From Catajapyx aquilonaris (taxonomy: Eukaryota), in the NCBI GenBank assembly GCA_000934665.2, contig KZ538174.1:1-64000 (forward strand): a DNA stretch of 64,000 nt. The letters are read 5' to 3'. How positions within the stretch are numbered: position 1 is the stretch's first letter; each line of letters starts with the position of its first letter. Under the pieces are notes generated by a model, which made no database searches, was not told where the DNA came from, and saw nothing but the letters and a program-made list of their open reading frames with translations. The translations under genes were made by a program, and so were the position numbers. This document shows positions 11,388 through 63,996 of the stretch, in pieces.

Positions 11388-11820
11388 ACAGGGTGTTCGT
11401 GAACCGACCAGTCAGACCTGTACCCGTGGCTCAATTGACACCAGAGGATCATGTTATGTAGAGGAGTCATTATGTCTGGGCAGCCTCATTACTGAGAGAA
11501 TTGATCATTTGCGATTTAGCGATTGGGCCTAAGAGTGATTGTCGTAGATTGTCACAGATTGTCCCAGATTGTCACAGATCACATGCGACATGCTAGTAGC
11601 CAAAAATGGAAAAGCTGCTATTTTCACCCGTGATATGATTTCGGGGCTGAAGGTTTCCATCCCTCCCAGGATACTTTGTACCAATTTGTACTTGTACTTT
11701 GGAGGCAATTATCTCAGTAATGAGGCTGCCCAGACATAATGACTCCTCTACATAACATGATCCTCTGGTGTTAATGGAGCCACGGGTACAGGTCTGACTG
11801 GTCGGTTCACGAACACCTTG
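11388..11820. mobile_element. mariner-type MITE (same family as 59687-60145)
   Basis: TA|CAGGGTGTTCGTGAACCGACCAGTCAGACC... with ~120-bp inverted arms; a near-identical family member lies at ~59690. Confidence 0.8.
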
Positions 11821-14862: not shown

Positions 14863-17800
14863 TCAAGCGCAAGGGTTAAACATGGTTGCACTAAACATGT
14901 GACAGTTTATCTTGGAGTCCCTCCACTTGGCTGGTATTCTAAACACCTTTCCATCAGGCATGCAGACGCAAACTTTGTACTGACTTGTACCTCCTCCAGG
15001 TGATGTGGCCTTCATGTTCACTTTCAATCCTTCCTGCCATCTAAGAACTAAACTACCATTGACTGTCTTCAAGTACACATCTTGATCAGCTGACCACACA
15101 ATCTCCTTTCCTTCCATTGAAGTCCCTTCATTGCCAATCAAAAAGGCAATGTTGTGGGATTTAAGGGAGAGACTGTCATTTGATGGGCTTGATATGCGGC
15201 GAGTGCGGGCGAGATGGATGTCCAAGTGTTTTACTCCACGAGGCAGGCCAAAGTTGGGGTAATTGGTTGAGAAGACAGTCTCACCAGTGTTTGGATCTCG
15301 CACCACAAATGTTGTAATGTTGGTTACATTTATGTTGTCAGTGGTCACTGCAATTTGTGGTTTTTGCCCATTATTAACTTTAAGTAGAATTGGGCCTGCA
15401 TCACCTTCAGTCTGGGGAAAAAAAGATATAACAATAACAACAACAACAATAATAATAATAATGGATACCCCGTGATAGGTCAAAAATGATATATTATATA
15501 GAACTCAAATTCTGCCTTGTAACACTCAATGCCAACATGTGCTGGACTGATATGAGAGTGGCTATTTTGGCTAAGATAGAATAATAATTTTTCATTCCCT
15601 AAGGGCCTGTTGCATGATCAATAGTAAATCCTGCAAACAAGTGTATACTCTTATGCGAATAACATGGATAAAGATTTGCTTTGGATTTACCATCAATTAC
15701 ACAACTGGCCCTAAATGATGTGGCATGATCTATGCCAATGTGCCCTTGTAATATTGAAAGCCATCACATGAATGACATTTGAAGCTGACTTCCACTAACT
15801 GCAAGGATTGGAAGGATTATTTTACAGTATACGTATACACCACCTACACATACCTTGCAGTGGAAGGACAGTGCTGGACATTAATTCCATCGTACTGCTA
15901 GTAACTTTTCCGAGGCGACAGAAGTGCACATCGACATGATGGAGTGCAAGCCATGCTTGTAAGAAATGGTAGGCCTTGGGTGACATCACTGGCTGGGGAC
16001 AATACTTTCTCTCCATTACCCCAGCCAGTGATGTCACCCAAGGCCTACCATTTCTTACTAACATGGCTTGTACTCCATCACTTCGATGTGCACTTCTGAC
16101 GCCTCGGAAAATGTCGCTTGCAGTACGACGGAATTAATGTCCAGCACTGTACCACTCCTCTTTTCTTGCCAGCCACCTGTATCTCAAATTAATGTAAACA
16201 GTGTTCATGATTAGTTGGTGGAATAAAAGGAGTGGTACAAGGTATGCTTAGATGGGGTATATGCAGTGAGTCACATTCAGAAACATATCACTATTTCACA
16301 CAATATTGCTGACACAGGTATGCTACTGAAGCATGCTGATGAGTGGCATCACAATTTATTCCACCCTAATGCCTATGCCATGCTAAAGTACTATGGGGCT
16401 CAAATTGTTTTGGCCACTTTATCCTGGTCTTGAAGCAACCCTTCGCACAGGCCCCACGGTAAGTAAGTGTGTGTGTGTGTGAAGGGTTGCTTCAAGACCA
16501 GGATAAAGCGGCCAAAACAATTTGAGCCCCATAGTACCTCCTTCCCCATTGGAACTTCCCTTATCCCACACTTCCCTGCACTAGGAGGGTTTATGCCTAT
16601 TCATAGTTTCTGAATGAATCTTTGTTGCAGACCTGCCTATTTCCATGAAAATAACAGTTAGACCCTACTATGCTATGTTTCCTGGTGTTTCTGAATATGA
16701 CCTAGTGTATTCCAACTGAATTAGCATTATTTTGGCCCAAGATGCTTATTATTAAGCAATTACACTGAACAGCAACACTTAGGTGTTATCAAAAATATTA
16801 GCTGCTTCCATTTGGCTGAATTGGGCATCCTTTTAAACCATTATGAAGGAGGCTCTCTAACTTGCAAAAAGAATTTATTCAACCACTGACATTGGATATC
16901 AGTGGTCTCAAAAATGCATTGTACTACAGAATGTGAAGGGATGGTTCCATTCAATCTAAGACGAACAGCAAATACTTTTGACAACTCACAAGAGTAAATA
17001 CAGAAGTAACTACCTACTAATAAGCAACTTGTGAAAAAAATCTTTACCACTAAAGAGAATTCAGTTGGAGAACACTTTATCTGTCAAACCTACTTACAGA
17101 CATTTGGTAATTCCAAGGAGAAATATTTATTTTAAAATTTCACACCTTTTCATTTATAACATTCTACTGCAAACTGGACCGAGCTACATGCAACATGACC
17201 AAGTTTATCATAATATAGGCTTACTATCGGCACGGAAATTGTCCAGTCACTTGGAGATAGGCTGACCATTGGGTCCAGACCATTTCCATGCTGATAGTAG
17301 GGTAAACCGTACAGTGATGGCCCACTGCGCCTTGGTTCTTTAAGAAATAGGCCGTGTAAATTCCATAACATGAAAGAAAGAAGTGATCATGTTGTGACAC
17401 CTGTGGTCCCTGGCTTGAACTAGGTCGAAAATCAGACTATAGTGGGCATTGAAAGAGCAGTAATGGCATCTCACCCAGAGTCCTACTGGTCATGTTGGAA
17501 TGCAGCCAGCAAATGTTAATTTTTTTTCTTCAGGACTTTCTTGCATTGTAAGTGTGTTTCTGGTCTCATAAAAATATCCCAATGTGAGGTATATGAAGTT
17601 CCGAAAGGGGAGCCTGTAGCTCTTCATTTGTGTCGGATTTGCAACACGTTCAGTTGGTACGTGTGTGGCAATAGAAGCGGCAACGCAGCAAAGGTCCGGG
17701 CCAATTATCGCGTAGCAGTATGTGACGTCATTGCCGGGTGGATTCGAATCATTCGATTATTATATTATAATTATAACTATATAAACTAATATAACGGTTC

Positions 17801-20800
17801 TGACGTCTGACAAACACCCCCGCCAAACGAAAATCCTGTGTGAGCCATTGTAAAAACCATCATACTAACTTGTACTCATATTTCGCGGTCGTATCGGTCA
17901 TATGCAACCTTATCTCGCTACCGTAAACAACGCTGTGTTGCCACTGCCTCACTCGAGTGGAGCACTGTGACGTGACTGGATCATTTTCGGATCGTTTTTC
18001 AGCAATACAAATTGACAGAGCCCGGTGAGGTAGGTTTTTCTTTTTGCGGTTACAATCAGTATATAATTCCCGACATATTCCACATTAAATTTTAAAATTC
18101 TCATTTACTTATGATCTTTTTGTGGACTATTGAAAATTCTTCCATAAGGGCCCATGTTAAATCGCGAACTTCTGAGCCCTCCAGTTCGCTAATTTGCATG
18201 GTGACATGTATTTTTCTTTGCACCATTGATAAGAGGACACAAAACTGCGTAACATATGTTTTTTTCATAAATTCTCATTAAGTGACTCTAGCTTCATTTC
18301 CACCTTAATAGGCGAGGAACGGGTGCACTCAGACGTGTCAGACGGGAGGCGCTAGCGAGTGGACTGTTTATTGCTAGGTGGCGTGCAGATAGTAAACAAC
18401 GGGTCAATTTGCAATAACCTGGCAACAACAGAACCACTTAGCAACTAAAGTCTGCTTGCGATGTAGCATGTGGATTGTAAACAACGGCTCTGTTATTGCC
18501 AGGTTATTGCAAATTGACCCGTTGTTTACTATCTGTGCGCCACCTAGCAACTAAACAGTCCACTCACTAGCGCCCTCTAGATGGCGTTTCTGGACACCGG
18601 TTCCTATGTGAAAAATATTTGTCTTGGTCCTCTCTGTTACCCCTACAAGTTTGTCTGCTGAATTCAGAAACTCCCTGTATGCTTGTAATCTGCAAGTCTC
18701 TACAAATAATGCCCGCAACTAATAAATGTGCAATTAAAATTACTAACCTCAACAGGGTCATCTACAAATCCCTGCAGTTTACCATCATGCTTGTATATCT
18801 TGTCCAGGTCAATATCGCCATAAAATTTGAGGAGGGATTCATAGGGAACAACTTCCAAGCTCTCCAATCCTTGACCAAGTCTCAGCACACCAAGAATAGT
18901 GAATGTTAAGAAGAGATTTGCTAGGGCCAACACAAAAAGGACAGCCACCAACAGCCAGAAAAGATATGTCTTGCAGCCACGTAGTCCAGTTTTGTGGAGA
19001 GATGGTTCATGCACTGGCACATATCCAGCCCTGAAATGAAACATACAAACTGTAGTTCCATAAAGAAAATACTGCTTTTATACTGACACAACAACAAAAA
19101 TCCAACAACCTATGTCACTGCATTACTAAAGTCTTTTCTTACATTTAAGCCAATATTTCCTTAATCTCAGCATTTGCATTAGCATATTGCATAGTCAGCT
19201 CTTTAATTGAAGGGTTCTCTGCAATAAGAAGGTAAGTGCACTTACCTTCTTATAGGTTTTTCGCTTTAAAACGCTGGAAAATATTATTAACTACCTACAC
19301 TGCAAAGGTTTCTCTCTAAGGTGTAAAACATGCTGCATCTTTGCAGACCAGGTGCAGGTAACTTGCAGATGGCAAGTATTTGCAAGCATGTTCTCTCCTC
19401 ATTTTCTCCCCTTAAAGGGCACTACTGTCTATAAAAGCTTTCTTCATTTCTCGAGTGCCCATGTGGGGGATTTCAATGCATAGTTTATTGATTTGACAAT
19501 GTTGTGATGAAAGTTCATGGGCCAAGTCTCTGCTCAGGTGAACATCAATGTTTATTAAATGTCATGTTGGACTCACAAGGGACACTATCCAAGTGTCACT
19601 CGCCGATTTTCATGAAATTTGGTGCATTGGTAGCCCACCCCAAGGGATGAAAAACGCACCTAAGGTTACCTGCTCAAAATGATCCTGTGACCCTTTTTTG
19701 AGGTTGCCAAATTTCAACTCGTAAAATTCAATCATCACCGATTTTCATGAAATTCGGTGCATTGGTTGGATTGATAAAGGATTGACATTTTCTCAGGACA
19801 TATTTATGTCAATAAAGCAGTGTTTGACACAAACAAAATGATGTCAAATACTGGACAAAACGTACTTGTGAAACAAAAAACGAGAGAGTCATTCCATGTC
19901 AAATCATCAAAAAAATAATAAGTTTTGGATTTTGAAGTCATGGATTTGGCTAATTTTTGGGAGACCTGTTCCTTCCCATCTGACATGGACAAAAATATAT
20001 TTTAAATTTTTTTTCCTGTCATCGGTTTTTGAATTTTGGAATGTTCAATAATTGCAAAACCTCCCAAAAACCGCTCACCGACAAACCTTTAAATATGATT
20101 TCCCAGAGAACCGTTCCAGATACAAGCTGGCAATGATCTCATTTTAAAGCCAATGAATAGGGCTTTCATATGATATATATGTAACATGTATTGTTATTCA
20201 GGACACATACGTTTTTCGGGACTTTTCAAAATTTCTTTTTACATTTTCCAAAAATAGGTATGATTTAAAATGTTCCTATAATTCACACATATTATTGGTA
20301 CACATCTACTGAAGGTCTAGTGAAAATTTCAGTGTGGGATCTCTATGCTGTCATACGATTCCGTGCACCTCCTTATGCACCCATACGTTTGAAAATTCGC
20401 TGATCAGTTATCCCTGATGGGTAAAGAATGGTTTATGCATTTCTGAATAAGGGATGCTCCAAGAAATAGATTGACATGGACGTCATTGTTGAACTTTCCA
20501 TTTTTATATCTCCGTGAGATTTGACTCCAGCGGCCTCAAATTGAGGATTTCGCAATTAGGTGTGGATACCTACATACTTGATTTTTTCAGTTACATCGGA
20601 AGGGGTCAAGCCACAACTTTTCAGAAACAGAATTGAGATGGAATGACCCAATTATCATTATTTTCCTCACATGTAATGAAATTCCATTTTCGTATGACAG
20701 CATAGAGATCCCACACTGAAATTTTCACTAGACCTTCAGTAGATGTGTACCAATAATGTGTGTGAATTATAAGAACATTTTAAATCATACCTATTTTTGG

Positions 20801-22653
20801 AAAATGTAAAAAGAAATTTTGAAAAGTCCCGAAAAACGTGTGTCCTGAATAACAATACATGTTACATATATATCATATGAAAGCCCTATTCATTGGCTTT
20901 AAAATGAGATCATTGCCAGCTTGTATCTGGAACGGTTCTCTAAGAAATCATATTTAAAGGTTTGTCGGTGAGAGGTTTTTGGGAGGTTTTGCAATTATTG
21001 AACATTCCAAAATTCAAAAACCGATGACAGGAAAAAAAATTTAAAATATATTTTTGTCCATGTCAGATGGGAAGGAACAGGTCTCCCAAAAATTAGCCAA
21101 ATCCATGACTTCAAAATCCAAAACTTATTATTTTTTTTGATGATTTGACATGGAATGACTCACTCGTTTTTTGTTTCACAAGTACGTTTTGTCCAGTATT
21201 TGACATCATTTTGTTTGTGTCAAACACTGCTTTATTGACATAAATATGTCCTGAGAAAATGTCAATCCTTTATCAATCCAACCAATGCACCGAATTTCAT
21301 GAAAATCGGTGATGATTGAATTTTACGAGTTGAAATTTGGCAACCTCAAAAAAGGGTCACAGGATCATTTTGAGCAGGTAACTTTAGGTGCGTTTTTCAT
21401 CCCTTGGGGTGGGCTACCAATGCACCGAATTTGATGAAAATCGGTGATGATTGAATTTTACGAGTTGAAATTTGGCAACCTCAAAAAAGGGTCACAGGAT
21501 CATTTTGAGCAGGTAACCTTAGGTGCGTTTTTCATCCCTTGGGGTGGGCTACCAATGCACCAAATTTCATGAAAATCGGCGAGTGACACTTGGATAGTGT
21601 CCCAGTCTGCAATCATTTTCACTCCCATGAGACCCACTTTACCCCGTGAAACATCTAACTCTCAAAAAAGTCAGACGCCACTGTGCTGGAACTTACATTC
21701 TCCACCAGACCAAGTCCGGGTCACTCCCAGACAATCCGGCGGCAGCCGAATCCCCCTAGCCGGATTGAGCGCAACTTACTGTCACTCAGGAAAACCCGAG
21801 CTCCACACCTCCTGTATATAAGCAGCCCCAGAAATAAACTAGTTGGTATGTCCCTCTCCAACTCGACTTTCATACACACATGCCAAACTGGACATATCGC
21901 CGTTCATCATGCCGCAGCTCTCAGGTCTCAGGAGGTTATAGAAGATTCGAGTTAGAGAAGTTTGGATTTTTTAAAGCACAGAACTCTTTAAGGAAGCCTA
22001 CCTTTATATCCAGCGACGAAAGGGGTCTAAAACTTAAAAATAACTGTCATTATCACACTTACAATGTCCCTCGTCGTTTCGTTGCAAAAAAATCTCCGTT
22101 ATGGACATTTGCCTACTCTTAGATTCAAGGATTCAATAATCGTCACAATCGAGTCAAACACTTCTTTCGGTACGTCTGGTAGACGGAGATCAGGAAATTG
22201 AGTCTTTCTGTACATGTGGCCCACTCTCCGACCCTTCGGCTGGGAAATGAGAAAATTTTCTTTACTCGCCAACATGAACTTCGACTTAGAGAGACTGAAA
22301 ATGCATTGATATCCCATCGAAAGGCCCTGCCTGCACTTCGAGTTATGGAGAACTTCGAGTTATAGAAATTCGAGTTAGGGAAGTTTATTTCCTATTATTT
22401 TACATTGTGACCAACCAAGCTCATCATTTTCTTCGACTTAGGAAAGTTCGACTTATAGAAGTTTTACTGTAGGCCTACTTGACTCCACATAACATTATTT
22501 AGGTCACCAATTCTGTCATTAGGCCTACCTAAAGTTGCTGTTGTGCTGCTTTATAACCCGGCGTTTCACAAGCGCCTTCTCCCTCATGGACAATGTTGCA
22601 TTATCCAGATGAAGATCCGACAGGGATGACCGAGTACTTGGATATGTCGACAT
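14863..22653 (-). CDS. SGCB: Beta-sarcoglycan, complete, 3 coding exons, 318 aa
   Basis: Exons 22653-22529, 19030-18748 and 15411-14863 have GT/AG boundaries and consistent phases (2, 0). The protein contains MREKALVKRRVIKQHNSNFRAGYVPVHEPSLHKTGLRG, one TM helix, GNEG and the C-terminal YKVCVCMPDGKVFRI...NPC sarcoglycan cysteine motif. Confidence 0.96.
15868..16150. repeat. Imperfect hairpin (~130-bp arms, ~20-nt loop) in an SGCB intron, probably a MITE relic
   Basis: ACAGTGCTGGACATTAATTCC...CACTGGCTGGGG is followed by CCCCAGCCAGTG...GGAATTAATGTCCAGCACTGT. Confidence 0.75.
16388..16537. mobile_element. Tc1/mariner-like hairpin MITE (related to 57028-57453)
   Basis: GTACTATGGGGCTCAAATTGTTTTGGCCACTTTATCCTGGTCTTGAAGCAACCCTTC and its reverse complement flank a (GT)n loop. 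Confidence 0.7.
18310..18606. mobile_element. Palindromic MITE
   Basis: AGGAACGGGTG...CACCGGTTCCT ends with a ~90-bp inner inverted repeat (18348-18435 vs 18486-18574). Confidence 0.65.
19579..21603. repeat. Near-perfect ~2-kb palindrome (foldback) in SGCB intron 1
   Basis: Arm 19579-20358 is the reverse complement of arm 20690-21603 with only a few differences. The right arm carries an extra 135-bp tandem duplication; the spacer is ~330 bp. Confidence 0.9.
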
Positions 22654-37567: not shown

Positions 37568-38224
37568 TGTGATGTGTATTATTATATAATGTACTGGTTA
37601 ATTTCGGTTACCATCTTTTGTTATGTACTTGTTAATTTTGGTTACCTAGGGTTGTTGTGCTAATTTCTGTTACCTAGGGCCGTTATGCTGGTGACCTGAT
37701 AAAAATGTAAACTAACAGAGGTGTTAAATAAAGGTGCCTAGGCCAAGTGAAGCGGTCAGTCTGGAGACAGCGAGGAGAGAGGGTCTCCCCTCCTAGCTGG
37801 TGGTGGTTGACTGCGATGAACTGGTCTACGCTGGAAATCCAAATGTTGTTCGTTGTTAACTGGCATACCGGTACAGGTAACGGTACCACTGGTTGAACGG
37901 TCGGTCGCAGGCATCTGCACCACTGACTATTCAGCGAGTGGTAAGGGGGATATCCGTACCGCAGGCATCTGCACCGTACGGACTATCTTCCCGTACCGTA
38001 TACCACCTTACTACTCGGTGTGACGGTCAGACCGCGGGCATCTGCACCGCTTGACCGTTATACCGCAGTAGAAGGCGTACCTATTGGGTGATACCAAAAG
38101 CGCTTCCCTCTCACTGACCGTACGCGGTTGGCGGAAGCCTGGACCAGGTCCGGACGGTACACAGTAAGCCGTCCGTGTACCTCCCTGTGACATAGATGCG
38201 AGTCACCCAGAACCTGGCATCACA
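37568..38224 (+). mobile_element. Solo LTR (Gypsy-like), 657 bp
   Basis: ATAT|TGTGATG...CATCACA|ATAT (TG...CA ends, 4-bp TSD), with an internal AATAAA at ~37727. Confidence 0.65.
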
Positions 38225-40794
38225 ATATCATGACATGGCAGACTGAGGAGAAAGAAAGTGACTCTGAAAAAGAGGACTGATAACACTGTGATTATCTCAT
38301 GTTTGTACGAGTACGTTTCAAATCAAATTATTATTATTATTTTTGAATTTTTTGTTGTACCCTGTGATGACCCTTACGGGTTCTATAGGGGGCTGGTACA
38401 CCACCATTTTTCCTCAATTTTCTAAGTTAACTTCACTCCGGTGCAGGGAAACAAGGACATTGGGTACGGAGTGGGATTTTTGGGGAGGGAACATGGGTGC
38501 AAGGTGCAATGTCGTAGCTATGTGCTGTTCCCCAGGAGATTAGGTTGCCAGACACCAGGTGTCTGGCACTCTGTCTCCTGGGAGGGGCCTCCTGGGAGTT
38601 ACCTTTCGCCTGCGTCAGGAGGGTCTCTGATCTGCACCTTGGAGGTCCTCCAAGGTGCAGATCAGAGACCCTCCTGACGCAGGCGAAAGGTAACTCCCAG
38701 GCGGAAATCAAATATGTACACAATACAACTCCTTTACATATGCATTGTAATACAGTGATTTTGAAAAGGGCACTATTCCAACAATTTGCATTCCATATTG
38801 CAACAATGTGAAGCGATGGGTGGGTAACAGGTGACTGTGGTTTAATACACTGTGACTTTCAGAACAAAACTGCTATTTCACATTTTTGATAGAGAGCACC
38901 ATTTAAATAATATTCAGTTTTTCTTGTGTCCTGAAAAAAAAAGGGTTTGTTGAATGTTGCCCTTTTCAAAATCACCGATTCAATTGCTGGCGACAGTGAG
39001 CGGGCTAATGTCACAAAGATGGAATTGGTGAGCTGGCAGCACTGGTGCGAACATCCGTAAGTTGTACAACCTTTGACACCGGTTTGTTTTTAAACGCATG
39101 GTGGACTGCAGCGCATGCTAATATTGGCCATCATTTCCCAGCAATTAAGCTGTGTTATTCTTTTATTTATTCTGGCCTATAGTGTTGCTTGCACTGTTTC
39201 AATGATAATTAATTAATTTAAATTAATTTCAAATGATAATTAATTATCTCCTTTTTTTAAAAAAATATATAAAAAAATAAAAAAAATAAAACCTTGGACA
39301 CAACCTTCGAGTACGATGGGTTGCCTACCCACCAGGCACAACAGACCAAAGGTGGAAACGGCCGTACCCGCGTACGGGGGCATATCCGGACATGGGTACT
39401 GAAGCTCAAAATACTTGCCTACGGGGCCTCTACCCACCCTGTGATTTTTGCCAGAGTTACCGGTATATTCAACTTGGCCCTGTGCATAAACATATGGTGA
39501 GTTCCACCATGATGTGTTATTCAATTTCTTTTATGCACACTTGTTTTAAGAGGCTAGTCACTCAACCATTAACCCCTTCAGCCCCAGATCGGCCCGAACC
39601 ACACAGTTTTTGGCTTACGCATACTCCGAAGATACGGACAAGATATTTTGCAAATAATAACAGCTATACTTACGAGATCTGGGAAAACCCTATGAATGTG
39701 TCTGGAACCATTTTACTCATCTAGAAGTCCCTAAATTAATTTCCAAAAAGGGCTATAATAACTCGAAATTGTACTACTGCCGCCCAACTTTTAGGCTGAT
39801 TTAATTATGAAATGCGTGAAAATATGCGGAATAACAACTTTGAGAACCATACCAGAGGAATGTGCTGAAATCGTCGTACTTTGCGAGAAATTAATTAATA
39901 CTCATTTGCAGCTTTCTGGCACTTCGGAAAACTCCGCATACGGTTCTCCAAGGTTCTCTAGGTACTATATACGTCATATTGTTTCATACCCCCCGCAAAC
40001 GAGCTTTATCCTGGCTATCCTAAGCAACCCACACGACATGATAACAGAAGCGAGTCAGCGGCAACAGGGCTTGGGGGGTGTTGCCCGGCTACGGAACCAG
40101 GTGGGGGTCGCTGGGCTGACCTTGCGTACCCCGTAAGCGATAAAGCCTTTTTTTTTGATATTTGTTGACTTGCCCATGCCGGAGGATAAATATAACCATC
40201 GTGTCCTTTCACTAAATGCGCGCATACGAGCTTGATGGCTGCATTCTGCATATAATNGGGGGGGGAGTCATTTGAATGATAATAACCCATCAAACAAGAG
40301 CGAATGCCAGCTAAGGCTGTGGATGCCTCAGGGGTTCGAAGCCCGTCTGGAGCCACAGCTGGATTATTTTTAATAATTGTTTTCTTCTGTTAATATTTTT
40401 TTCACCCCGGCATTGTCCTCAAATGATGATTTTACAGATCCCCTGTCTAAAACTAGTATATATTGGCCAGAAATATCCCCCGGACGTAATTATTCGTCCC
40501 TTGACCTACCCTTAAACCCGCGCGGTGTGGACACGGGATTATTCGGCATAAACGAACAAGATATTGAGCACCCATTCCATGGTTCCATGATGGTGCAATT
40601 ATATAGGTCTGACACGATACTTCTGAGGAAGTAAAATAAAGGCTGGGATGCCCACACACAAAAGCTGACAGTAAGCAGCAGGGCAAGACACTCTCAAATA
40701 CTATACAGGACGTGTCTGTAAGATTCCAACAAAATTCGTGCTAACGAAGGCAATGTTATAGCATTTACTTTGGGATGCAATCTGCTTCCCTGTC

Positions 40795-40833
<39 letters not shown>

Positions 40834-41524
40834 GACACCGGAAGCAGCACATGAAGCAATGAAACCATCAGGAAATAAGTTGAAGGCAATGAATGAAGAA
40901 CATCATCTTATATAGCTTCAATTTGTCATGTTGCTGGAACGATTTTGCAATGTGACAAAAATGTCAATACAGCTGCAAAGGAAGATTCCGGAAAGATGAG
41001 GTAGTGATCATGGTTTCGGACTACCGTAGTTCCAGTGTTGAAAAAAACAACTGTCGCAATGCAAGAGTCAAATATTTCTTCCAGTTCTTATTTACAATAT
41101 TACATTGCGAAGAGCCATGCCCAAAAAAATGTCGGCAACGATCAACAGTCACGACAAAAATATTCCTCCCCATGCATCGTCTCTTCTATCTTACCTCCCA
41201 CCCTCGTTGACTTGTTTTTTTTTGTATTTTTTTTAGATACTAAAGAATGTCGCTTGCCTCATGCTCAAGCTCTTGACAGTGTGTTGTGCGATGGTGAAAA
41301 GTGGTTAGTAGATTAGGAGGAAGTCTAGTTAATGTTGGCTGATCCGTCCTCTGCAAAGGGTAATAATAATTGACACAGAAATACATCGAAATGTTGTGTC
41401 CTTTTTATTTCTAATACTGTAGTCACAAAAAAACTTATCTGTCTCTTAAATCATGAACAGAAACAATGCCAAGTTTACACGATTCATTATCATGGACATT
41501 CAATCAAATTCTCAGTTCTGGGTT

Positions 41525-42010
41525 TAGAACTCAGGTGCACGAGAGGATTGGGATATGGTGCAATATGCAAGCAACGGTGCAGAGCATGAAGAAAACTCGA
41601 AGGAATTACAGGAAGATGAAGAGACAAGGATATAGACGACGCTAGGAAAGGTGTGGTAGCCCCTGCATAACAAATGGGAGAGCTCCCAAGACCAATGCTA
41701 AGGCTCCTCAGATCCGTCAAGACTAGGATCTGATAAAAGTCGCATCTGAACGCACTATTCTGAGGCTCTGGGTGTAGCTTTGGCTCAATCTTGACAGAGG
41801 CGAAACTCCGTGATGGTATGCTGCTGGCATTCTTTGAAGTGGACGAAGATGCAATGGAGCAATGTCGTGTTCATGGACAAGTCATCCATTGAGATTGGTT
41901 GGAGGGGAAAGAGAACGGTGACCCACACAATCTCCAGAATGTGCAACGGATGTCTTGTGGCCCTCTCCTTCTGAATGTCTGTGAAGTCGCGGGAACAGGT
42001 CATAATCGTC
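41525..42010 (+). pseudogene. Intronless, deletion-riddled inverted copy of transposase exons 2-4 (antisense to the transposase mRNA)
   Basis: GCACGAGAGGATTGGGATATGG (exon 2), AGGAAAGGTGTGGTAG (spans the exon 2/3 junction) and TGGAGCAATGTCGTGTTCATGGACAAGTCATCC (exon 4, first catalytic D region). Confidence 0.85.
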
Positions 42011-42915
42011 ATATCCTCCTGAGACCTGAGAAGAATTTTTTAACGCAATGTCAGTTCCTATTGCATTTTCTGAACATGTTCCCAATAAGAAACAAGAAAA
42101 AAATTTTAGTTTTAAAATATCGACAAAAATGGCGACAAACAACCAATGGGAACATTAGGACCCAATTGGTGCTACAAAAGCAGAACGGATGAAAGCTGAA
42201 AATTGAAATACCACTTAATGGATCACTCACATAGTGCTCTATCCTCCAAACATTGTTTTTAAAATTAATTTGTGGAATTAGTGGTAGAAATTCCTCTCAG
42301 AAGACAATTAAAGATAAATGAAATCATTTTTTAACGCCACCACTCCAGGCATGGGGCTTGCTCCTTCCCTTCTTACCCGCTAAAGTTGTACCTTGCTATT
42401 CTAGATTTTGAAACTGAACTGCACAGTGAAAAGCCCACTTCCTTATGGGTGTATAGGTACAGGCACGTAAAGAAAAGTCACACCCATTCAGCTAAAAATG
42501 CCATTTTTCGGATGTCCATTTAAATGGACATTTTGTCTCAGGAAGAAAAGAAAATGACCAGTTCTCTACAGCAACAAAGATTGTCACAGAATCATCTTTT
42601 CGCAGTTCCTAAGACACATTCCTTGCGAATCCCAGGACATTCACTGCATTGCGAAAATCACATTCTAAATATGAGTAAAAAAATAAAACTTATCAGATGA
42701 GCGCCTAAGCTTCAGCAGCGGAATCCGCCATTTTGTCCGCGATTTAATTTTTGCGGCCCAAGCCAGATATTCGACGCTAGGTGGCTACAGCTATTGAGGC
42801 CAGATTGTAACCATGGGATACCAGCCTATTACAGTTCTGTTGGCATCACTGGTTGGCGCCAAAAAAATCTTTTGCTCATGTCGACATATGACAACACCAG
42901 GTCTCAGGAGGATAT

Positions 42916-43046
42916 ACCAATATCTGGACGAATCATGCCGACGACGTCAAGATTCTGGATGAGGACGTCCTGCCGTCTCTCCTCGAAGAAAACCCTGATG
43001 GTTGCTTCTCTCCTGTGCAGTTTCGGTCTCCAATTGGCACTGCCCA
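42916..43046 (+). pseudogene. Second inverted block: diverged copy of the 3' half of transposase exon 4, abutting the stop codon
   Basis: Translates as VKILDEDVLPSLLEENPDGCFSPVQFRSPIGTAH, versus VQILEEEVLPHLLQDFPDGCFYVVQDRSPIHTAR in the intact gene. Confidence 0.85.
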
Positions 43047-44622
43047 TCAGTACTTGGTCCAGCCCCCACCCCGCCGGATTACTCCTTCCAGCCGCCGCGG
43101 CATGCTGTCAATGAGATTCCGGCGAAGCTCCTCGTCTCCTTGGAGGCTGGACCACTTCTCCTGGAGGCCGTCCCAGAGGGCATCCCTATTGGCGAATCGA
43201 CATCCAGAGAGGCCCCTCTTCAGGAGGCCCCAGACATTTTCAATTGGGTTCAAGTCGCACCCCTTGGGAGGCCACTCCAAGAAGTTGAGTGCAGGATTGT
43301 TCTGGGTCTGAAATGGAAGTGCATATGTGGTAGTACTGCATGATTAATCCCATAACTTACAATTCTTCTCGCCAAAGACCTACCCAGTGCTGCACTACAC
43401 GGGCAGTGTGTATTGGAGACCGATCCTGCACAACGTAAAAGCAACCATCAGGGAAATCTTGCAGGAGATGAGGCAGGACTTCCTCCTCCAGAATCTGCAC
43501 GTAGTTCTGCGCATTCATATGTCCAGATATTGGGATGACGGGTCCCAGAGACTTCACAGACATCCAGGAGAGAACAGCCACAGAAAAACGTCCACTCCGT
43601 TGCACAATCTGGAGATATCGTGGGTCGTACCGATCTCCCGGCAGTCGCCGTACCCTCATCTTTCCCCTCCAGCCAATTTCAACGGATGACTCGTCCATGA
43701 AGACAACATTGCTCCAGTCCTCCGCTGTCCAGTTCCTGTAGCTCTCTATTTAATGAAGGAAAAAATGATAATGCGATATTATCGCGTAATGTGGCAGCAC
43801 ATACTCATGTGAGTTTATAGACCAGTGGAGCGGGATGGGCAAAAATAGGCTACCCATGGTATGACTATATCGGCAGTGTATTATATCTTAATGTTAGAAT
43901 TGCGCAAATAGTAACATACCACTAAATGCCAGTCTATCACGGTGATTCGCCACTGTCAGCAATGGCTTTTGGGCCGCTGTTCTACACCGCAGTCGAGCCT
44001 CCATGAGACGCCTCTGAATAGTGCGCACTGACACGACTTCTACCAGATCTAACTCCCGTCGAATCTGCGGAGCCATTGGCCTCGGAAGGTCCCCCATCTG
44101 GCTCAGTTCAGCAATTTGCTGATCCTCCAGACTTGTCGTCAATCGGGGCCTACCACATCTGCAATAGATATGTTGCAGCACTTACAAGAAATCGTCCCCA
44201 TTAGATCATCGCATGCAATATTGCCATCTACATTTTGTCAATTTTCGTATCGGTCAAACTCAATAAGGACTCGTCAGGTTGATGACAGCTTCTCATATAA
44301 TAAGTTTATCCAGCGGGATTCTCTCTCACCTTCCTTTATATTGCGGGGTTAGAGTAGCAGTCATGGCCTCATCTTCATCCTGTAAATCCTGCAGGTTTTC
44401 TTCGTATCTCTTACAAATGCTCTGCACCGTTGCCTTGCTTAGTAGGAGTTGCTTTCCTATTGCCCCATATCCCAATCCTCTCGTGCGCCTTAGTTCTGCA
44501 AATAACGACATGAATATATTACACTCTTTTAGATAAAAAATGTATGCAAAAGTATTATTGCACCAAATTTCAAGCTTACCAATTACTCTGCTGCGAATGT
44601 CCCTGCTCAATGGTCTCGGCAT
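43047..44622 (-). CDS. Tc1-family (IS630-Tc1-mariner) DD35E transposase, intact, 5 exons, 356 aa
   Basis: Exons 44622-44580, 44495-44330, 44158-43920, 43745-43384 and 43307-43047 are GT/AG with consistent phases. It has paired-like HTH regions (MPRPLSRDIRSRVIE..., GRPRLTT, VSVRTIQRRL), VVFMDES, and VQDRSPIH...WPPKGCDLNPIENVW with 35 residues between the second D and E. It ends in a Tc1-type C-terminus (SMPRRLEGVIRRGGGWTKY). Confidence 0.92.
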
Positions 44623-44627
44623 CTTGC

Positions 44628-44665
44628 AATGAATTGGCGTACCCAGCACAGCCCGTTTTATATAC
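44628..44665 (-). promoter_or_regulatory. TATA box plus initiator of the transposase gene
   Basis: On the - strand, TATATAAAA (44664-44656) is followed ~30 nt later by TCATT (arthropod Inr), just upstream of the ATG. Confidence 0.6.
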
Positions 44666-46818
44666 GGACTCATCCCAAGTCAAATTGCAAAATTCACATG
44701 TGAATTGAAATGCCGCACTCCGGCGCCAGCACTTATTGGCCCCATGTATTATTTAGGGTACCCAAAACTCACGTTCTATGAGTTCAACTTACTATGCTGC
44801 TCCATCATTAGGCCTACATATCATAATTACTCCGCCGGCGATTGTTGTCATACACACAAGAATAATATTACACAAATTCTTTATTCAATTGGGAAAACAA
44901 GGGTGTTACTCAAATAATTGTCACTCATAATTCGAAATGTGGCTCCCTCTTTTCAAGACTGAATATATAAAGTAGGCCTATAACCTTCATAAGAATAGCA
45001 ATGAAGCAGTGCAGTAGGCCTCGGCCTTATTTTCATTATTTTGGGGACAAGCGTTCTTGTTGGTATATAACATTTCGCGTCTGCATTACGCTTCATTGAC
45101 TGCATGAAAATTTCAGCATGAATATTGGAAACAAGACCACGTGGTATTTAATATTTCACGATGATTATTAACTAACTTGCTTTTGATCTGGTCGCTGATG
45201 AGAGAGAGAGAGAGAGCCGACAGGGAAGCAGATTGCATCCCAAAGTAAATGCTATAACATTGCCGTCGTTAGCACGAATTTTGTTGGCATCTTACAGACA
45301 TGTCCTGTATAGTATTTGAGAGTGTCTTGCCCTGCTGCTTACTGCCAGCTTTTGTGTGTGGGCATCCCAGTGTCTTTATTTTACTTCCTCAGAAGTATCG
45401 TGTCAGACCTATGAAATTGCACCATGGAACCATGGAATGGGTGCTCAATATCTTGTTCGTTTATGCCGAATAATCCCGTGTCCACACCGCCAAAATTCGC
45501 GCGGGTTTAAGGGTAGGTCAAGGGACGAATAATTACGTCCGGGGGATATTTCTGGCCAATATATACTAGTCTTAGACAGGGGATCTGTAAAATCATCATT
45601 TGAGGACAATGCCGGGGTGAAAAAAATATTAACAGAAGAAAACAATTATTAAAAATAATCCAGCTGTGGCTCCAGACGGGCTTCGAACCCCTGAGGCATC
45701 CACAGCCTTAGCTGGCATTCGCTCTTGTTTGATGGGTTATTATCATTCAAATGACTCCCCCCCCCCCCCCTTCCCACGCTCCTTTTAAATGCAACAATTA
45801 GTTAATTGCAGCAGCACACAAAAGCAAACAGAATGCTCCCTATAAGTTCAATGATATCTGATTATATGCAGAATGCAGCCATCAAGCTCGTATGCGCGCA
45901 TTTAGTGAAAGGACACGATGGTTATATTTATCCTCCGGCATGGGCAAGTCAACAAATATAAAAAAAAGGCTTTATCGCTTACGGGGTACGCAAGGTCAGC
46001 CCAGCGACCCCCACCTGGTTCCGTAGCTGAGCAACACCCCCCAAGCCCTGTTGCCGCTGACTCGCTTCTGTTATCATGTCGTGTGGGTTGCGTAGGATAG
46101 CCAGGATAAAGCTCGTTTGCGGGGGGTATAAAACAATATGACGTATATAGTACATATTCAGGATATTTTAACATATTACATAAGAAATATTAAAATTATG
46201 AAATATGTTAAAATATCCTGAATATGTACTACCTAGAGAACCTTGGAGAACCGTATGCGGAGTTTTCCGTAGTGCCAGAAAGCTGCAAATAAGTAATAAT
46301 TAATTTCTCGCAAAGTACGACGATTTCAGCACATATTCCTCTGGTATGGTTCTCAAAGTTGTTATTCCGCATATTTTAACGCATTTCATAATTAAATCAG
46401 CCTAAAAGTTGGGCGGCAGTAGTCCAATTTCGAGTTATTATAGCCCTTTTTTGGAAATTAATTTAGGGACTTCTAGACGAGTAAAATGGTTCCAGACACA
46501 TTCATAGGGTTTTCCCAGATCTCGTAAGTGTAGCTGTTATTATTTGCAAAATATCTTGTCCGTATCTTCGGAGTACGCGTAAGCCAAAAACTGTGTGGTT
46601 CGGGCCGATCTGGGGCTGAAGGGGTTAAGGAACCATGATTAAGGAGTTAGATTGGTGTCCCTTTGAATAGAACAAAGTTGTTTGAGTTCTAAGCCACAGC
46701 AGCTTCCTTCCTTCCCTATCCTGGCCCCATCCATGTGTGAAGAAATTTCAGAAAAAATTGAGTGGTAAAATGGTGGTATTCCACCTCCCTAATGGAGCAC
46801 CGATTCTCCCAATTGGGC

Positions 46819-46822
<4 letters not shown>

Positions 46823-46885
<63 letters not shown>

Positions 46886-47168
46886 TCTTACCCCGCTATC
46901 AGCCTTTTTTGGCTCTTTAGGGGGGATTTTTGTTTTGTCTGGAACTCTTGCTTACATGTAGTTTACTTTTTGCTTTTTGGGATAGGATAGGGAAGGAAGG
47001 AGGCGGCTGTGGCCTTTTTAATTAGGAAGCAACCCCGGAATTCTCCTGGAGGGACCGTGGGAAACCACAGAAAACCACGGTCATAGTTGCCGGCCCCGGG
47101 GCTCGAACCCAGGACCTCCCGATTAGCAGTCGGACGACCCTATAGCCACTCCGCCAAACTGCTTCGGT
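46823..47168 (-). mobile_element. tRNA-derived SINE, family B, with an (ATT)n tail
   Basis: Head GAACCCAGGACCTCCCGATTAGCAGTCGGAC on the + strand; CCAATTGGG.AATA is repeated on both flanks. Confidence 0.75.
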
Positions 47169-47554
47169 CCAATTGGGTAATATACGAGTAAGTTGTTTGA
47201 GTTCAGAAAGGCTTGGGCCTTTGGCTTGGGCTGGATCTTGTCTGTAATCATTGTACACTACCCTTTGAATAATGATTACACTGGGGAACAAAAATAATTT
47301 TTCCCCCTGTTGCATGAGATTTTTCAACTGATTCCAAGTAGTCTTTCAACGTTGATTTCAAATCTGAAATCGGTTTTCCTCTACATGCTCTAGTTTTCAT
47401 GCAATTTGAAACTTGTGATTTTCGGGGGGAAAAGGACACCCATTGCGATTTACACTGGGGGTAACGTTAGAATTAGGCTTCGAGCTACCATATCAAGCTA
47501 GGCTTGATGAAACAGTTCGTGAAGGCATTAAGTACTGATGGGAATGTTTTCAAG

Positions 47555-48754
47555 CAGTGGCGTAGCAACCGGGGGGGCAGAGGGGGCAGCTGCCCCCCCA
47601 TGATTTATAATGGGGGGACAAACACTGGGTTTTGCCCCCCCCCACGAATTATCCATGAATTATGCACATCAAATGAAAAAAAAACCTTTGTTCCTTTGAA
47701 TTGTTTGAACTTTCTTTACTACTCTTTCTCATTTGCAGCTCGTACTGACACTGTATAGCAGAACTATTCGGCAATGAAAAATGTAATTTGTACTCGTGTT
47801 GTATTTGTTTTGAAATTAATAATAAATACATTTCATGTTCCAACAACAAAATTGAGAATTCGTGTTAGTAAACTACACCAGAATGGGGGAATTCATATCA
47901 CAGGTGGTCAGGTGCTTTGTTAGGCATGCTGAAGTAGTGAAGTAAGTAATCAGTTGCAGCTTCGCCCAAAATTAAATTCTGTATGCGGCACTGCCTGACA
48001 GCTGACACTGGTTTTTGTGAAAATTGTAGCCGGAAAATTGTCATTTTTGTTTCGTTTTCAAATCACAAGTTTTCATGACATCTATGCTTAAACATCGTTT
48101 TCAGTAATAGAAATTCCAAATGTTTTCTGCCCTCACCCCCTCCCCTAACATCTCCCCCTTGCAGTGCCGGATTTATAGGGGTGCGCAGGGTGTGCGAGAC
48201 CTGCCAGCCCCCCCCCCCNCCCCCCAAAAAAAAAAGGTTAAAATATTTTTTTATTAAAAATTAAAAATTAACTGCTACTTGTGACGCTACTGACGAACCT
48301 CCAGCTCCAGGCTTAAATACTTAATAGTAAGCAATTCCTCATCGGAAAAGGGAGTCAAAGTAATGTCGGGAGCACTACCCGCCTTCCCGTTGCAGTGATG
48401 TGAATGATCCTTAGTGGCGTATGCAGGGGGGCACGAAACGTTTGAAATAGCCGGAAATAACACTAGAAATTACTAATTCATGATTTTTTTGTTAAAGTGC
48501 TTCCAATTTCATCAAATACACACCCATTCAAATCTCCCACATTCACCTAAGCTCGTGTGACCTTGAACCCAAAAATTTCCACCTGCGGCGGGCTTCCTCC
48601 CCGCCCTTTCCAACTTGTTCCCCTAGTGCTTATGAAATGGGTCCCCACCCGAAATTTTTCTGCCTACGTGCCTGCCTTATTGCTGTGTATGTTAATTTCT
48701 ACGTCCCCCAAACCGTTTGCCCCCCCCATGAAAAAATTCGTTCCTACGCGCCTG
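47555..48754. mobile_element. Non-autonomous hAT element, 1.2 kb
   Basis: 8-bp TSD TTTTCAAG (47547-47554 / 48755-48762), CAGTGGCGTAG...CTACGCGCCTG ends and G/C-rich subterminal palindromes. Confidence 0.75.
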
Positions 48755-48857
48755 TTTTCAAGCATCACAATATGCATTAGTTTGGGAAAAGTACAAAATT
48801 TCGAAAAAGAATGTCCCAATTTTAAAACCACATAAGTCGAAAACTTGTAGACATATA

Positions 48858-49297
48858 CAGGGTGTATCAGAACTCTACCGTAAGCCATATGCCAATGGCG
48901 TAATGGTCAGCTGATGATCATTTACAGTATCGGAATCATAGGCCTGGGCCGCCGCATGACCGAGATAATTGACCTCAACCAATAGGTATAAAATATCCTG
49001 GCAGGTATGCAAACCTTCAGCCGCCAATCGCATCACAGGTGATGTCGCAGCTATTTTCTGGGGGGCTACTGCCACACTGCTATTGGGGTAGTCACTAAGG
49101 GCTCTTAGAATGCAGTTCCCCCCAGATGCACTGCTATTCTACAATCCCGCTTAAGCGCAATCGCTACTTCGCAAATGATCAATTATTATCTACGTGATGT
49201 GGCTGCCTAGACATGATGACCCCTCTACATATAATGATGCTCTGGTGCCCCTTATGCCATTGGCACATGGCTTACGGTAGAGTTCTGATACACCCTG
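48858..49297. mobile_element. mariner-type MITE, nested
   Basis: TA|CAGGGTGTATCAGAACTCTACCGTAAGCCAT ... ATGGCTTACGGTAGAGTTCTGATACACCCTG|TA. Confidence 0.85.
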
Positions 49298-50364
49298 TAT
49301 AAATGATTTATGGTTTGAAATGTTAATAAATGTCTAAAGTTTTGGTCTCACCTTAGTTTGTTTCGATATGAGCTTCATTTGTCACTCGAGAAATTTTAAA
49401 AAAATGTATTCGGTCTCGAGCCAAACCCGCTCAATCTTATCTGGAACCTTTGTGATCCTAACCCGTAGGTGGTCTTTACACCACACACATTGTTCTTGAT
49501 GATGCACTTGAAAAGTAGCCGCATCCAAACAAACCTCCCATAGGAAAGTTTCACTTGTTCAGCCTCCCAGTGTGTGAAGTCTTGAATGAGAAGTTTCCCA
49601 ATGCCTAGCCCCCCAGAAGCCCAGATCTTACCCTAATTGACTTTTTTGTGGGGATACATGTATGGTGAAAAGATCTGGCATCATCAGCAGCTACGGGAAA
49701 ATATTGCAACAGTAACACCAGACATGATATGTCTGAGCTGGTTAGGCACGACACCAATTACCATATTTACATTTGCTGAGCGACAAATGAAGCTCATATC
49801 GAAACAAACTAAAGTGAGCCCAAAACGTTAGACATTTCTTAGCAATTCAAAACTTAAATCATTAAGATATGCCTACAAGTTTTCAAATTATAGGATTTAA
49901 AAATTTGCAATTCTTTTTTGATATATTTTGACTTTGTTCAAACTCTAATGCATATTGTGATGCACCTACAACTTTTTTGTGAGTAAAAAAGAATATATCT
50001 TTACCAAGACAGTTGTTTAAGCCTAATTTTAAGACTATGACCATGAATTCCTCAGAGAGATCATGTCATCATGCGACAGGCATCAAAATGTCACACTAAC
50101 TGAAAAAAATTAATTATAGGAAATCGAGAGCTTACAGAGAAAAACTAAAATCAGATTTACATTCAGCACACTCAAATTAGATAAGAAAACGTGCTGGTAT
50201 CAACTCAACCAAAAATTTGTTCCCCAGTGTTATCACCTGTATTTAGTACCATTCTTCCATGTGTTTGGAAAGGTGTCCAAAAGGCTTGGGAGAAAATGTG
50301 ACAATTTAATTCCTTACAAAAATACAGTCTGTTTGTCGACCAACAATAAATAGTAGTTCAGGTC

Positions 50365-57474: not shown

Positions 57475-60400
57475 TTAACATTCATACACGGTATGTTCTG
57501 GGTCCCCTTCATCGGAGTGGTGGCCTTCTCGCTCTGGCTTTGAAGCATACTCTACACAACAAAGAGAAATAATTGGTTAATTATATGCATTACCACTGAA
57601 TCTCTTCATTATAAATGGTCTACACTCTACAGTTTCCATAGGCCAGTTTATTTCAAATTCTGCCCAAGTAATCAGGACCTGTTATATTGGGACAAAATAC
57701 AACTGCCAAGGAAAACACATTGGCAGACACCTGTGCATGGAACTTCGTTCTTTGAAAGCCCCTAAATCCGAATGTTCCAGAGTTCGAGCACTAAATTAGC
57801 GAGAAATTTGAACGACAGATGCTTCGAAGTTTGAACTGCACATGCAATGAATAAACGCTCTCACTCCATAAACGCTATCTGTTGTGCGCCAAGTTGTCTC
57901 TCGCCCTCGCCATGAAAGCATCTCTTGCACTATGCTCTTGCTTTAAGTGCTTTTCTCACTTTATTTTTGATGTGTTTGGTTATAACTTATTTAATGAAAG
58001 GTGAATGTAAATGTAAATTGGTGAATTTTCGAGGGTCTTTTTCGATTGGATTCTGCATTATCAGGAGCAAAAATTTCAGTCTTGTGAGGATGGGTTCAGG
58101 TTTTTCCTTTTTAAAAAAAAATAAATAAAACCTTGCCTACTGCTCTGAGTAGTTTACAGCAGTAATTTTTACGAGCCATTCCATACACACACTATCAAAA
58201 TCCATCACAGCAAAGGCAATGATTAAAGTCACTCAATATTAAAAAGATTATCCCCTAAAAAGCCCAAGGAGGCTTATCATGGGGCATCCATTATTACACT
58301 TCACATAATCATGATTTACAGTAAGTACCCGTTTTATGCCGCTTCATTTTACGCTGTTTGAAAATAACATATGAACAAATTTTAATTGAAAAATTTGAAG
58401 ATAACACAATCTAAACATAAACACAGCACTGCAACACTTCTAAGTCCAAACACACGACTGTAAAGACTCTTCTTTTGTTTTTCGTGGTGCTTTGTGGAGG
58501 GATCTGTCGACATATACAGTACCGTATTGTTGGTCTCGGCACTCGCCAAAGATTGTTAATACCCTACGTCTACTGCAGTTCTTGCCAAAGAAGGGAAAAG
58601 AGCCCTCAGAAGCCGATGACCCTCAACCTGGAACCTCCCATTAAATGTGCATAATTAATTTTCCAAATATTTAGCATTAAGAACTGCAATTTAATACTAC
58701 CCATTTTGGAGCCTCTCTCATTTACTGTATTTGATACCTTTTTCTGCAAAATATGGTTTTAAAAATCGCCCTGTCTTATATGCAAAAATACACTAAATGA
58801 AGACCTCAGGAGAAAAACCATCAAGGTCCATCTGAGGTGAAACTGAGACAATCGAATTTTAAATTTCGAAGGCCCAGAAGGTTCCATTGTAAATCCCACT
58901 TTCGGGGCCTTCCATAGCATAGTGACCTACGATCATTACTCCACAACCATGACCAAACCATCATATTCAATACTAGTGAAAGTATCTTCTGAGATATGTA
59001 ACTCATTTTTGACAAAAAGGGGACCTTGATCTTTCTTCCCCCGAGGTATTCAAATGCTTTTTTCCCTGAATTACTGAATATGGTCTTCTGAAATGGGGGT
59101 GCATCTTATATGCCGTCATATACAGTACTTCAATTGAAGGGTGCAGTGCAAGAGGGGCACGAGTCAAACGAACAGACACCTGACTCATGCCTCTCTTGCA
59201 CTGCACCCTTCAATTATAATTCTGCCTCGTTTTATGCAGATTCACTTTTGGCAGTATGTTGCTGGAATCAATTACTGGCGTAAAACGGGTACTTACTGTA
59301 TACATCAGAGATTTTTTTGCAACAATGTTACATGGGCACTTGCTTCCTGCTGCCAATTCTCCTCACACATTACCCAAGTTATCAGCTTCCAATAACATGT
59401 ACAGTATTGGTCATATATCGAGGCAACTGCCAGCGACATTTTCCGAAGCGGCAGAAGAAGGAATCGAAGATAAGCATGCTACAAGCTGGGCGAGCAAGAT
59501 TAAACCTTAAAGCTTACGATCGGTGATTACCATCGTCTGGATTTGCCTTTGACTTCTGCAAATGAAACCATATTCTGCAAATGAAACCATAAGATCATCT
59601 GTCAAAACAACAAAAGCTGTCTGTAACAGCCCCATTATTCATCATGATAAACAGATACTTGATTATCATCAAGGTCTTGTATAATACAGGGTGTCATTGA
59701 ATCGACCAGTCAGACCTATACCCGTGGCTCAATTGACACCAGAGGATCATGTTATGTAGAGGAGTCATTATGTCTGGGGAGCCTCATTACTGAGATAATT
59801 GATCATTTGCAATTTAGCGATTGGGCCTAAGAGTGATTGTCAAATAGCAGTGACAAGTGCGATTGCTCTAGAAAATAAGCAGTGTGTGTCAGTGTGTGCC
59901 ATGCGACATGCTAGTAGGCTAATGGAAAAGCTGCGATTTTGACCGGTCCTGCGATTTTGACCGGTGATGCGATTTCGGGGCTGAAGGTTTCCATACCTCC
60001 CAGGATACTTTGTACTTGTCGTTTGAAGGCATTTATCTCAGTAATGAGGTTGCCCAGACATAATGACTACTCTACATAACATGATCCTCTGGTGACAATT
60101 CAGCCACGGGTACAGGTCTGACTGGTCGATTCAATGACACCCTGTATACAGGTCCCGCACTCCTTGATGATGATGATGGTGATGATGATCAGCCCCCAGC
60201 AACTCCTACCCCAGCCTTATGGACACGGCCGTGAGCTTAATCCCCCCCCCCCCCCCCNNNNNNNNNNNNNNNNNNNNNNNNNNNNNNNNNNNNNNNNNNN
60301 NNNNNNNNNNNNNNNNNNNNNNNNNNNNNNNNNNNNNNNNNNNNNNNNNNNNNNNNNNNNNNNNNNNNNNNNNNNNNNNNNNNNNNNNNNNNNNNNNNNN

Positions 60401-63400: not shown

Positions 63401-63996
63401 CTGCTGTGGCTATTTAAAAAGCAAAAAAATTAAAAATTCTCAACTTTTGAGGACAGGTTTTCACTACTCACAGAACAGACACTTAAAAACTGAGTTTCAC
63501 TTTTTCCCCTATTATTATTAGGAACATACTCTAATGAAAATTATTGTGCCTCACTCCAAAATCAATCCTGAAGACATCCTTTTGATTGGAAGCCCACATT
63601 TCACCTCTCCCAAAATGACAAGCAACACAAAATACTAAGGGCCAGTTGCACCGGCCTCAGTATAACTTAGAACCTCGGGTATATCAAGAATTGCCATAGC
63701 AATCATTGTTGACCAACAATGATTGCTATGGCAATTCTTGTTATACCCTAGGTTCTAAGTTATACTGAGGCCGGTGCAACTGGCCCTAACTTGGCTGGAG
63801 TCATTCCATATGGCCACTCTATTTAGATTCTGGAGTCACATATACCAACTTGTTCTGAAGGCCTTAATAATCTAGCCTACATAAAACTGACCTGGAATTC
63901 TGTGAGGTCCGGTTCCTGTGCCAAATGATGCCATCTCTGTGTTGTTAAGTGAGGATTCCTTTGGTGTGCGTCCACTAGACATTTTTCTTGCTTTTC
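57475..63996 (-). CDS. Possible 3' end of an unidentified gene (internal exon 63996-63892, candidate terminal exon 57551-57475)
   Basis: Both segments have polypyrimidine-AG acceptors. The phase-1 join gives ...KARKMSSGRTPKESSLNNTEMASFGTGTGPHRIPEYASKPEREGHHSDEGDPEHTVYEC*. No family was recognised. Confidence 0.3.
59687..60145. mobile_element. mariner-type MITE (family of 11388-11820)
   Basis: TA|CAGGGTGTCATTGAATCGACCAGTCAGACC ... GGTCGATTCAATGACACCCTG|TA. Confidence 0.85.
60892..61658. mobile_element. pogo-like non-autonomous element
   Basis: TA|CCGTATTACCTCACTTATTG ... CAATAAGTGAGGTAATACGG|TA, with subterminal CGGCATGCCGG repeats. Confidence 0.75.
62406..62582. mobile_element. Tigger-like MITE
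   Basis: TA|CAGTTGAATCCGGATATAAC ... GTTATATCTGGATTCAACTG|TA. Confidence 0.8.
63639..63786. mobile_element. PIF/Harbinger-type fully palindromic MITE, 148 bp
   Basis: TAA|GGGCCAGTTGCACCGGCC...GGCCGGTGCAACTGGCCC|TAA; almost the whole element is one hairpin. Confidence 0.85.

Follow-up and report, generated by a model that had tools for sequence, protein, structure and literature searches.

The segment at positions 42011-42915 of the window, by which we mean the whole 64-kb stretch of DNA that was analysed, is very probably one copy of a highly abundant, about 0.9-kb non-autonomous class II DNA transposon, with the two 18-mers at its tips as its terminal inverted repeats (TIRs). This assignment follows from the high abundance of the segment in public DNA taken together with its lack of coding capacity. 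Also directly observed were a perfect terminal repeat, a clean interruption of an older sequence, a sharp boundary shared among copies and internally deleted derivatives. According to the mechanism that we infer, the two 18-mers would be bound and cut by a transposase acting in trans; the element would have inserted into a pseudo-copy of a Tc1-family transposase that lay on the plus strand and was already in decay, with a probable duplication of 2-4 bases of an ATAT target, and any RNA stem would be a by-product of the terminal repeats. The fallback reading of the initial annotation, in which the 18-mers are the TIR pair of an old insertion, is supported by the abundance, the sharp left boundary and the clean break in homology. 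That the insertion is old is doubtful, as its repeats have remained perfect and an unoccupied form may persist.

The 18-nt inverted repeat and the interrupted pseudo-copy

The left 18-mer, ATATCCTCCTGAGACCTG, lies at 42011-42028 on the plus strand and is the exact reverse complement of 42898-42915, the right terminal repeat on the minus strand. The perfect 18-bp inverted repeat described in the initial annotation was thereby borne out, with a start one base to the left of 42012. Complementarity ends at 18 nt and the bases further inwards are unrelated. The left repeat was delimited by a pattern scan as well as by contig breaks at 42011, and is composed of an outer ATAT (42011-42014), representing the tip of the repeat and/or a target-site duplication, and the core CCTCCTGAGACCTG (42015-42028, plus strand). 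When the window was scanned for the 18-nt pattern with up to 2 mismatches, three matches were obtained against 0.00 expected from 100 dinucleotide-preserving shuffles, the third being on the minus strand at 21922-21939, where 17 of 18 letters agree. When perfect inverted pairs of at least 16 nt within 2 kb were counted across the window, more than 40 others were found, and 30 first-order Markov resamples of the window gave 0-3 seeds of 16 nt within 2 kb each. The 18-nt repeat is far beyond chance in random DNA, yet typical of this repeat-rich window.

The third match is part of a solitary end at 21919-21939 (minus strand), which agrees with the left end of the 905-bp element in 20 of 21 letters (ATAA CCTCCTGAGACCTG AGA). 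No partner repeat for it was found in the window with up to 4 mismatches, and no similarity to the interior of the element was detected. Judged from its letters, this end is probably the terminal remnant of another copy. Within the 64-kb window a second copy of the 905-bp segment itself was not found. One scan of metagenome contigs with the 22-nt left end gave 0 matches, and in a full-text literature search the 14-nt core and its complement matched two plant-pathology papers, which were judged unrelated. The core contains GGTCTC, and we take these matches to be cloning primers.

The interior of the segment, to which no strand was assigned, consists of 869 bases of unique sequence between the 18-nt ends, and a search of it for subterminal repeats yielded short, weak pairs only. 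It is non-coding: the longest ORFs inside the 905 bp comprise 58-81 aa, and 0 of 7 ORF pieces reached the Pfam cut-off (best score DUF7763, E 0.021, 15.5 bits against a cut-off of 27). An Rfam scan of 38000-48000 returned 0 matches at gathering thresholds, and no tandem repeats were present in 41900-43000.

The segment separates two blocks of a pseudo-copy that is homologous to the intact transposase gene on the minus strand. On the left side 42006-42010 pairs with 43541-43537, and after the insertion the homology resumes at 43536. The two antisense blocks are indeed in register, as had been claimed; they meet opposite 43537|43536 and no homologous base is lost. The perfect 18-nt repeat is situated exactly at both breakpoints of homology. 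After the segment and one ATAT had been removed by script, the alignment to the spliced gene was continuous across 43537|43536 with nothing missing, and the intact minus-strand gene harbors no counterpart of the 905-bp segment at this position. The flanking blocks would thus be in register because the element inserted cleanly into a continuous, pre-existing sequence. Any TIR element that lands in continuous sequence is expected to leave two blocks in register, rejoined by a stem.

The outer four letters are ATAT at both tips and palindromic, so that they can serve as inverted-repeat tip and as direct duplication at once. The statement that no target-site duplication was seen therefore needs correcting, as both tips read ATAT and 2-4 bases may hide in them. 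From the letters, the duplication may be TA (element ends TCCTCC...), ATA or TAT, or ATAT (ends CCTCC...), and without it the element would measure 897-899 bp. At the solitary end the 14-nt core (21922-21935) matches exactly, and the adjoining letter is not the same (TTAT). Two readings would fit: a repeat of 14 nt whose 4-nt duplication varies, or one of 15 nt that carries a single mismatch, together with a TA duplication.

The insertion site may give a hint of the superfamily. Sleeping Beauty, a Tc1/mariner element, is described as preferring the palindromic ATATATAT centred on TA (PMC8934666). The present site reads C-ATAT-A, and a TA duplication in an AT-alternating context would give ATAT at both ends, as observed. 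The element differs, however, from the only Tc1-like unit of the window, as it ends in TCCTCCTGAG... and the unit in ACCCCTTCAGCCCC. An autonomous partner was not seen in the sequences analysed.

Abundance in public DNA and class assignment

To the region 40850-45150, Logan contigs of four public DNA runs were aligned at 80% likeness; X1-X3 are runs of one sample, while X5 represents a sample from another study. Summed word depth, which is no copy number and was used solely as a sign of a several-hundred-fold excess of the segment's words, amounted to 20,000-52,000 over 42002-42865 in X1-X3, in contrast to 30-290 in the other bins, with the exception of 40850-41281, where a separate repeat lies. 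The same contrast was obtained with X5 (12-108 over 42002-42865 versus 0-3.3 in other bins).

At the left boundary 31, 29 and 26 contigs (X1, X2 and X3, respectively) enter unrelated DNA just before 42011, and further loose ends just before 42010 were found for 16 contigs in X2 and 16 in X3. The consensus agreement among the loose ends was only 0.39-0.42; the flanks are therefore many and different. One X5 contig spans 41772-42019 with 0 differences, demonstrating that the left junction is real in the sample of the second study and not an assembly artefact. The right boundary was visible only as a fall in depth within the 42866-43009 bin. Of the 15 contig joints listed, 14 lie within the segment, and many internally deleted forms retain the ends; at the joint 42029->42894, with 16 unrelated letters in between, little is left but the two ends. 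Internally deleted derivatives are a common pattern of class II elements.

A further joint, 42010->42912, was present in X1, X2 and X3. It leaves out 901 bases and has 4 letters that can be assigned to either side; its short side has 26 letters, under the bar of 31, and the three runs stem from one sample. The joint is suggestive of an unoccupied site reading ...GTC-ATAT-ACC..., and, given a contig depth of 45-110, may originate from a paralogous pseudo-copy rather than from an allele.

TIRs at both ends, dispersed copies with unrelated flanks and the lack of transposase coding place the element in class II. A Helitron was considered and dropped, given the terminal inverted repeats. The initial annotation had named as contrary to its stem reading a free MITE elsewhere in the genome with target-site duplications; the copy-number half of this was found, in contig depth and unrelated flanks. 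Like MITEs and other non-autonomous class II elements (Stowaway-like, Tc1/mariner-mobilised families, or human Made1), the element combines short TIRs and a high copy number with the lack of a transposase gene, its copies are dispersed among unrelated flanks, its deletion derivatives keep the ends, and its RNA is predicted to fold via the terminal repeats. MITEs in the strict sense reach up to roughly 600-800 bp. With 897-905 bp the element is above this usual size, and it was therefore filed as a non-autonomous TIR element and not as a strict MITE. It also differs from Made1, which consists of two 37-bp repeats around 6 bp (PMC1784062), in that repeats of 14-18 nt surround a long unique interior and no near-palindrome is formed. 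There are known MITE RNAs that fold via their repeats and enter small-RNA pathways, Made1 and hsa-mir-548 being an example (PMC1784062). For annotation, the 905-bp unit with its 14-18-nt ends defines a very abundant repeat family to be masked, which may already be catalogued.

RNA stem and splicing as alternative readings

In the initial annotation the 18-mers were proposed to pair in RNA, so that the stem would rejoin the two antisense blocks. The pairing as such is in line with the folding prediction, which for a 967-nt transcript gave, on either strand, a minimum-energy fold containing 18/18 pairs (mean pair probability 0.99); for the isolated 18-mer duplex -33.2 kcal/mol was predicted. However, any perfect terminal repeat would fold likewise, and the predicted stem therefore says nothing on function. 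That the stem exists to rejoin the blocks found no support, as it is intrinsic to a highly abundant dispersed element.

A functional RNA helix, in which the 18-mers of a read-through 3' UTR of the minus-strand transposase mRNA would loop out about 870 nt, bring the antisense blocks together as one uninterrupted arm and thereby build a hairpin or three-way junction that regulates the transposase, is consequently a very improbable reading. It would accommodate both the complete set of 18 predicted pairs on either strand and the register of the antisense blocks opposite 43537|43536. Against this, the stem is part of an element dispersed in many copies and thus did not take shape here, and the weak, 26-letter joint suggests that an insertion-free form also exists. 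The antisense blocks themselves belong to a pseudo-copy in decay, which shares 79.4% identity with the spliced gene and carries many indels, and the longest exact complementary runs between the blocks and the gene are 22, 17, 15 and 14 nt. Furthermore, the first minus-strand poly(A)-like signal past the stop codon, the motif ATTAAA at 42743, lies inside the insertion, so that the transcript may end before the second 18-mer is reached. The next such motif on the minus strand is AATAAA at 41404.

In a splicing-based reading, the segment or part of it might be removed from minus-strand transcripts as an intron, either as a 3' UTR intron or as an introner-like transposon with its own splice signals. 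On the minus strand, acceptor-like letters TTCTTCTCAG end at 42026 (TTCTTCTCAG|G at 42026-42035), and donor-like letters are found near 42229 (GTGAGT, within ATGTGAGTG) and near 42375 (GGTAAG, within GGGTAAG). This support is at the level of motifs, and hexamers of this kind occur frequently in a 0.9-kb stretch with 40-45% GC; moreover, splicing is required by nothing here, as the flanks are a non-coding pseudo-copy. We regard removal as an intron as highly unlikely.

Hardly tenable is the reading that the segment is original to the pseudo-copy lineage and was later lost from the shorter form through a deletion with the two ATAT repeats as its endpoints: direct repeats of 4 nt are able to mediate such an event and the shorter form rests solely on a 26-letter contig overlap, but this leaves the several-hundred-fold word excess of the segment, the unrelated flanks at 42010/42011 and the perfect terminal repeat unexplained, and the intact gene without a counterpart of the segment argues against its original presence in the lineage.

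The Tc1-family transposase gene, its pseudo-copy and the surrounding window

The intact Tc1-family transposase gene is located at 43047-44700 on the minus strand and has three GT..AG introns between exons at about 44700-44330, 44158-43920, 43745-43384 and 43307-43047. The spliced frame runs open to ...GGGWTKY-stop. Exon by exon, HTH_Tnp_Tc3_2 scored above the Pfam cut-off (35.7 bits versus 31.5), while HTH_SB remained below (26.9 versus 43), as did DDE_3, which was found on two exons with 23.0 and 24.8 bits, each alone below 28.6. When exon 3 was compared with a protein database (longer proteins only), a single relative was retrieved, P0001 (PF01498, PF13358), with 36-40% identity and aligned across FMDES, QDRSPIH and DLNPIEN. 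We take these to be the catalytic motifs of the transposase. From the domains and the homolog, both a paired-like HTH DNA-binding region and a DDE/D catalytic domain were recognised, as in Tc1/mariner transposases. No second copy of exon 4 was found within the window.

The pseudo-copy is encoded on the plus strand in two blocks. Block 1 (41526-42010) is the counterpart of exons 1-3 in the minus-strand gene as far as 43537; block 2 (42916-43062) starts with the equivalent of 43536 and terminates at the gene's final codons. Over 613 columns, the pseudo-copy (41526-43062) is 79.4% identical to the spliced coding sequence. It lacks all three introns and contains many indels, and it is therefore a decayed, intron-less copy. 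The missing introns suggest that it may derive either from mRNA or from an intron-less sister family. RIP-like mutation was considered and rejected (56 transitions versus 70 transversions). Word depth was 90-290 over the pseudo-copy (41282-42001) versus 24-76 over exons 1-3 of the intact gene; given its higher depth the pseudo-copy may belong to a several-copy family, and the intact gene may be low-copy.

Both transposase copies are contained in a 7.06-kb unit with outer inverted arms of 1.25-1.4 kb at 39569-40813 (left arm, plus strand) and 45200-46628 (right arm, minus strand), which are 96-98% identical. Both outer ends read T-TA-ACCCCTTCAGCCCC, and on the inner side each arm runs into a (CT)n microsatellite, where it ends. 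By their letters, the outer ends (T-TA-A-CCCC) would be compatible with a TA or a TTAA (piggyBac-type) duplication. A simple old palindrome comprising the whole 7-kb unit was rejected, as 40814-41525 shows no relationship to 44498-45199 in reverse complement (score 14; shuffle mean 13.0, maximum 18). Beside the (CT)n run lies the separate repeat at 40850-41281, which had a word depth of 215-2,290 (X1-X3).

The surrounding locus, with its inverted, intron-less pseudo-copy, is more unusual than the 18-mer. Maize Mu killer is described as an inverted duplication of part of mudrA that includes two terminal repeats, for which a hairpin RNA giving rise to siRNA was proposed (PMC3440606). The surrounding locus, and not the 18-mer, resembles Mu killer in having an inverted partial copy that covers the 5' two-thirds of a transposase and adjoins the gene directly past its stop codon, and in the position of gene and inverted partial copy inside two long inverted arms. 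It differs from that description in that the copy is intron-less, is 79% identical to the spliced gene, resides in an animal host and is known from DNA alone, and in that word depth suggests a low-copy full gene. By analogy, the locus might form a hairpin through which an animal Tc1-family transposon naturally silences itself, which we consider very improbable; if so, read-through RNA would fold back on the spliced message, and the stem of the inserted element would keep the interrupted arm in register.

The window has a GC content of about 40%, and a sarcoglycan-family exon at 14863-15504 on the minus strand (Pfam Sarcoglycan_1, E 6e-31) identifies it as part of an animal genome. The insertion is an ordinary event in such a repeat-rich animal genome. 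The window evidently harbors further MITE-like or foldback families in abundance. Short-range inverted repeats or foldback-like units were noted at 11392-11817, 15868-16150, 48762-49963, 59684-60147 and 63638-63787. In addition, a palindrome of about 2 kb is located at 19584-21598, whose arms share identical runs as long as 164 nt.
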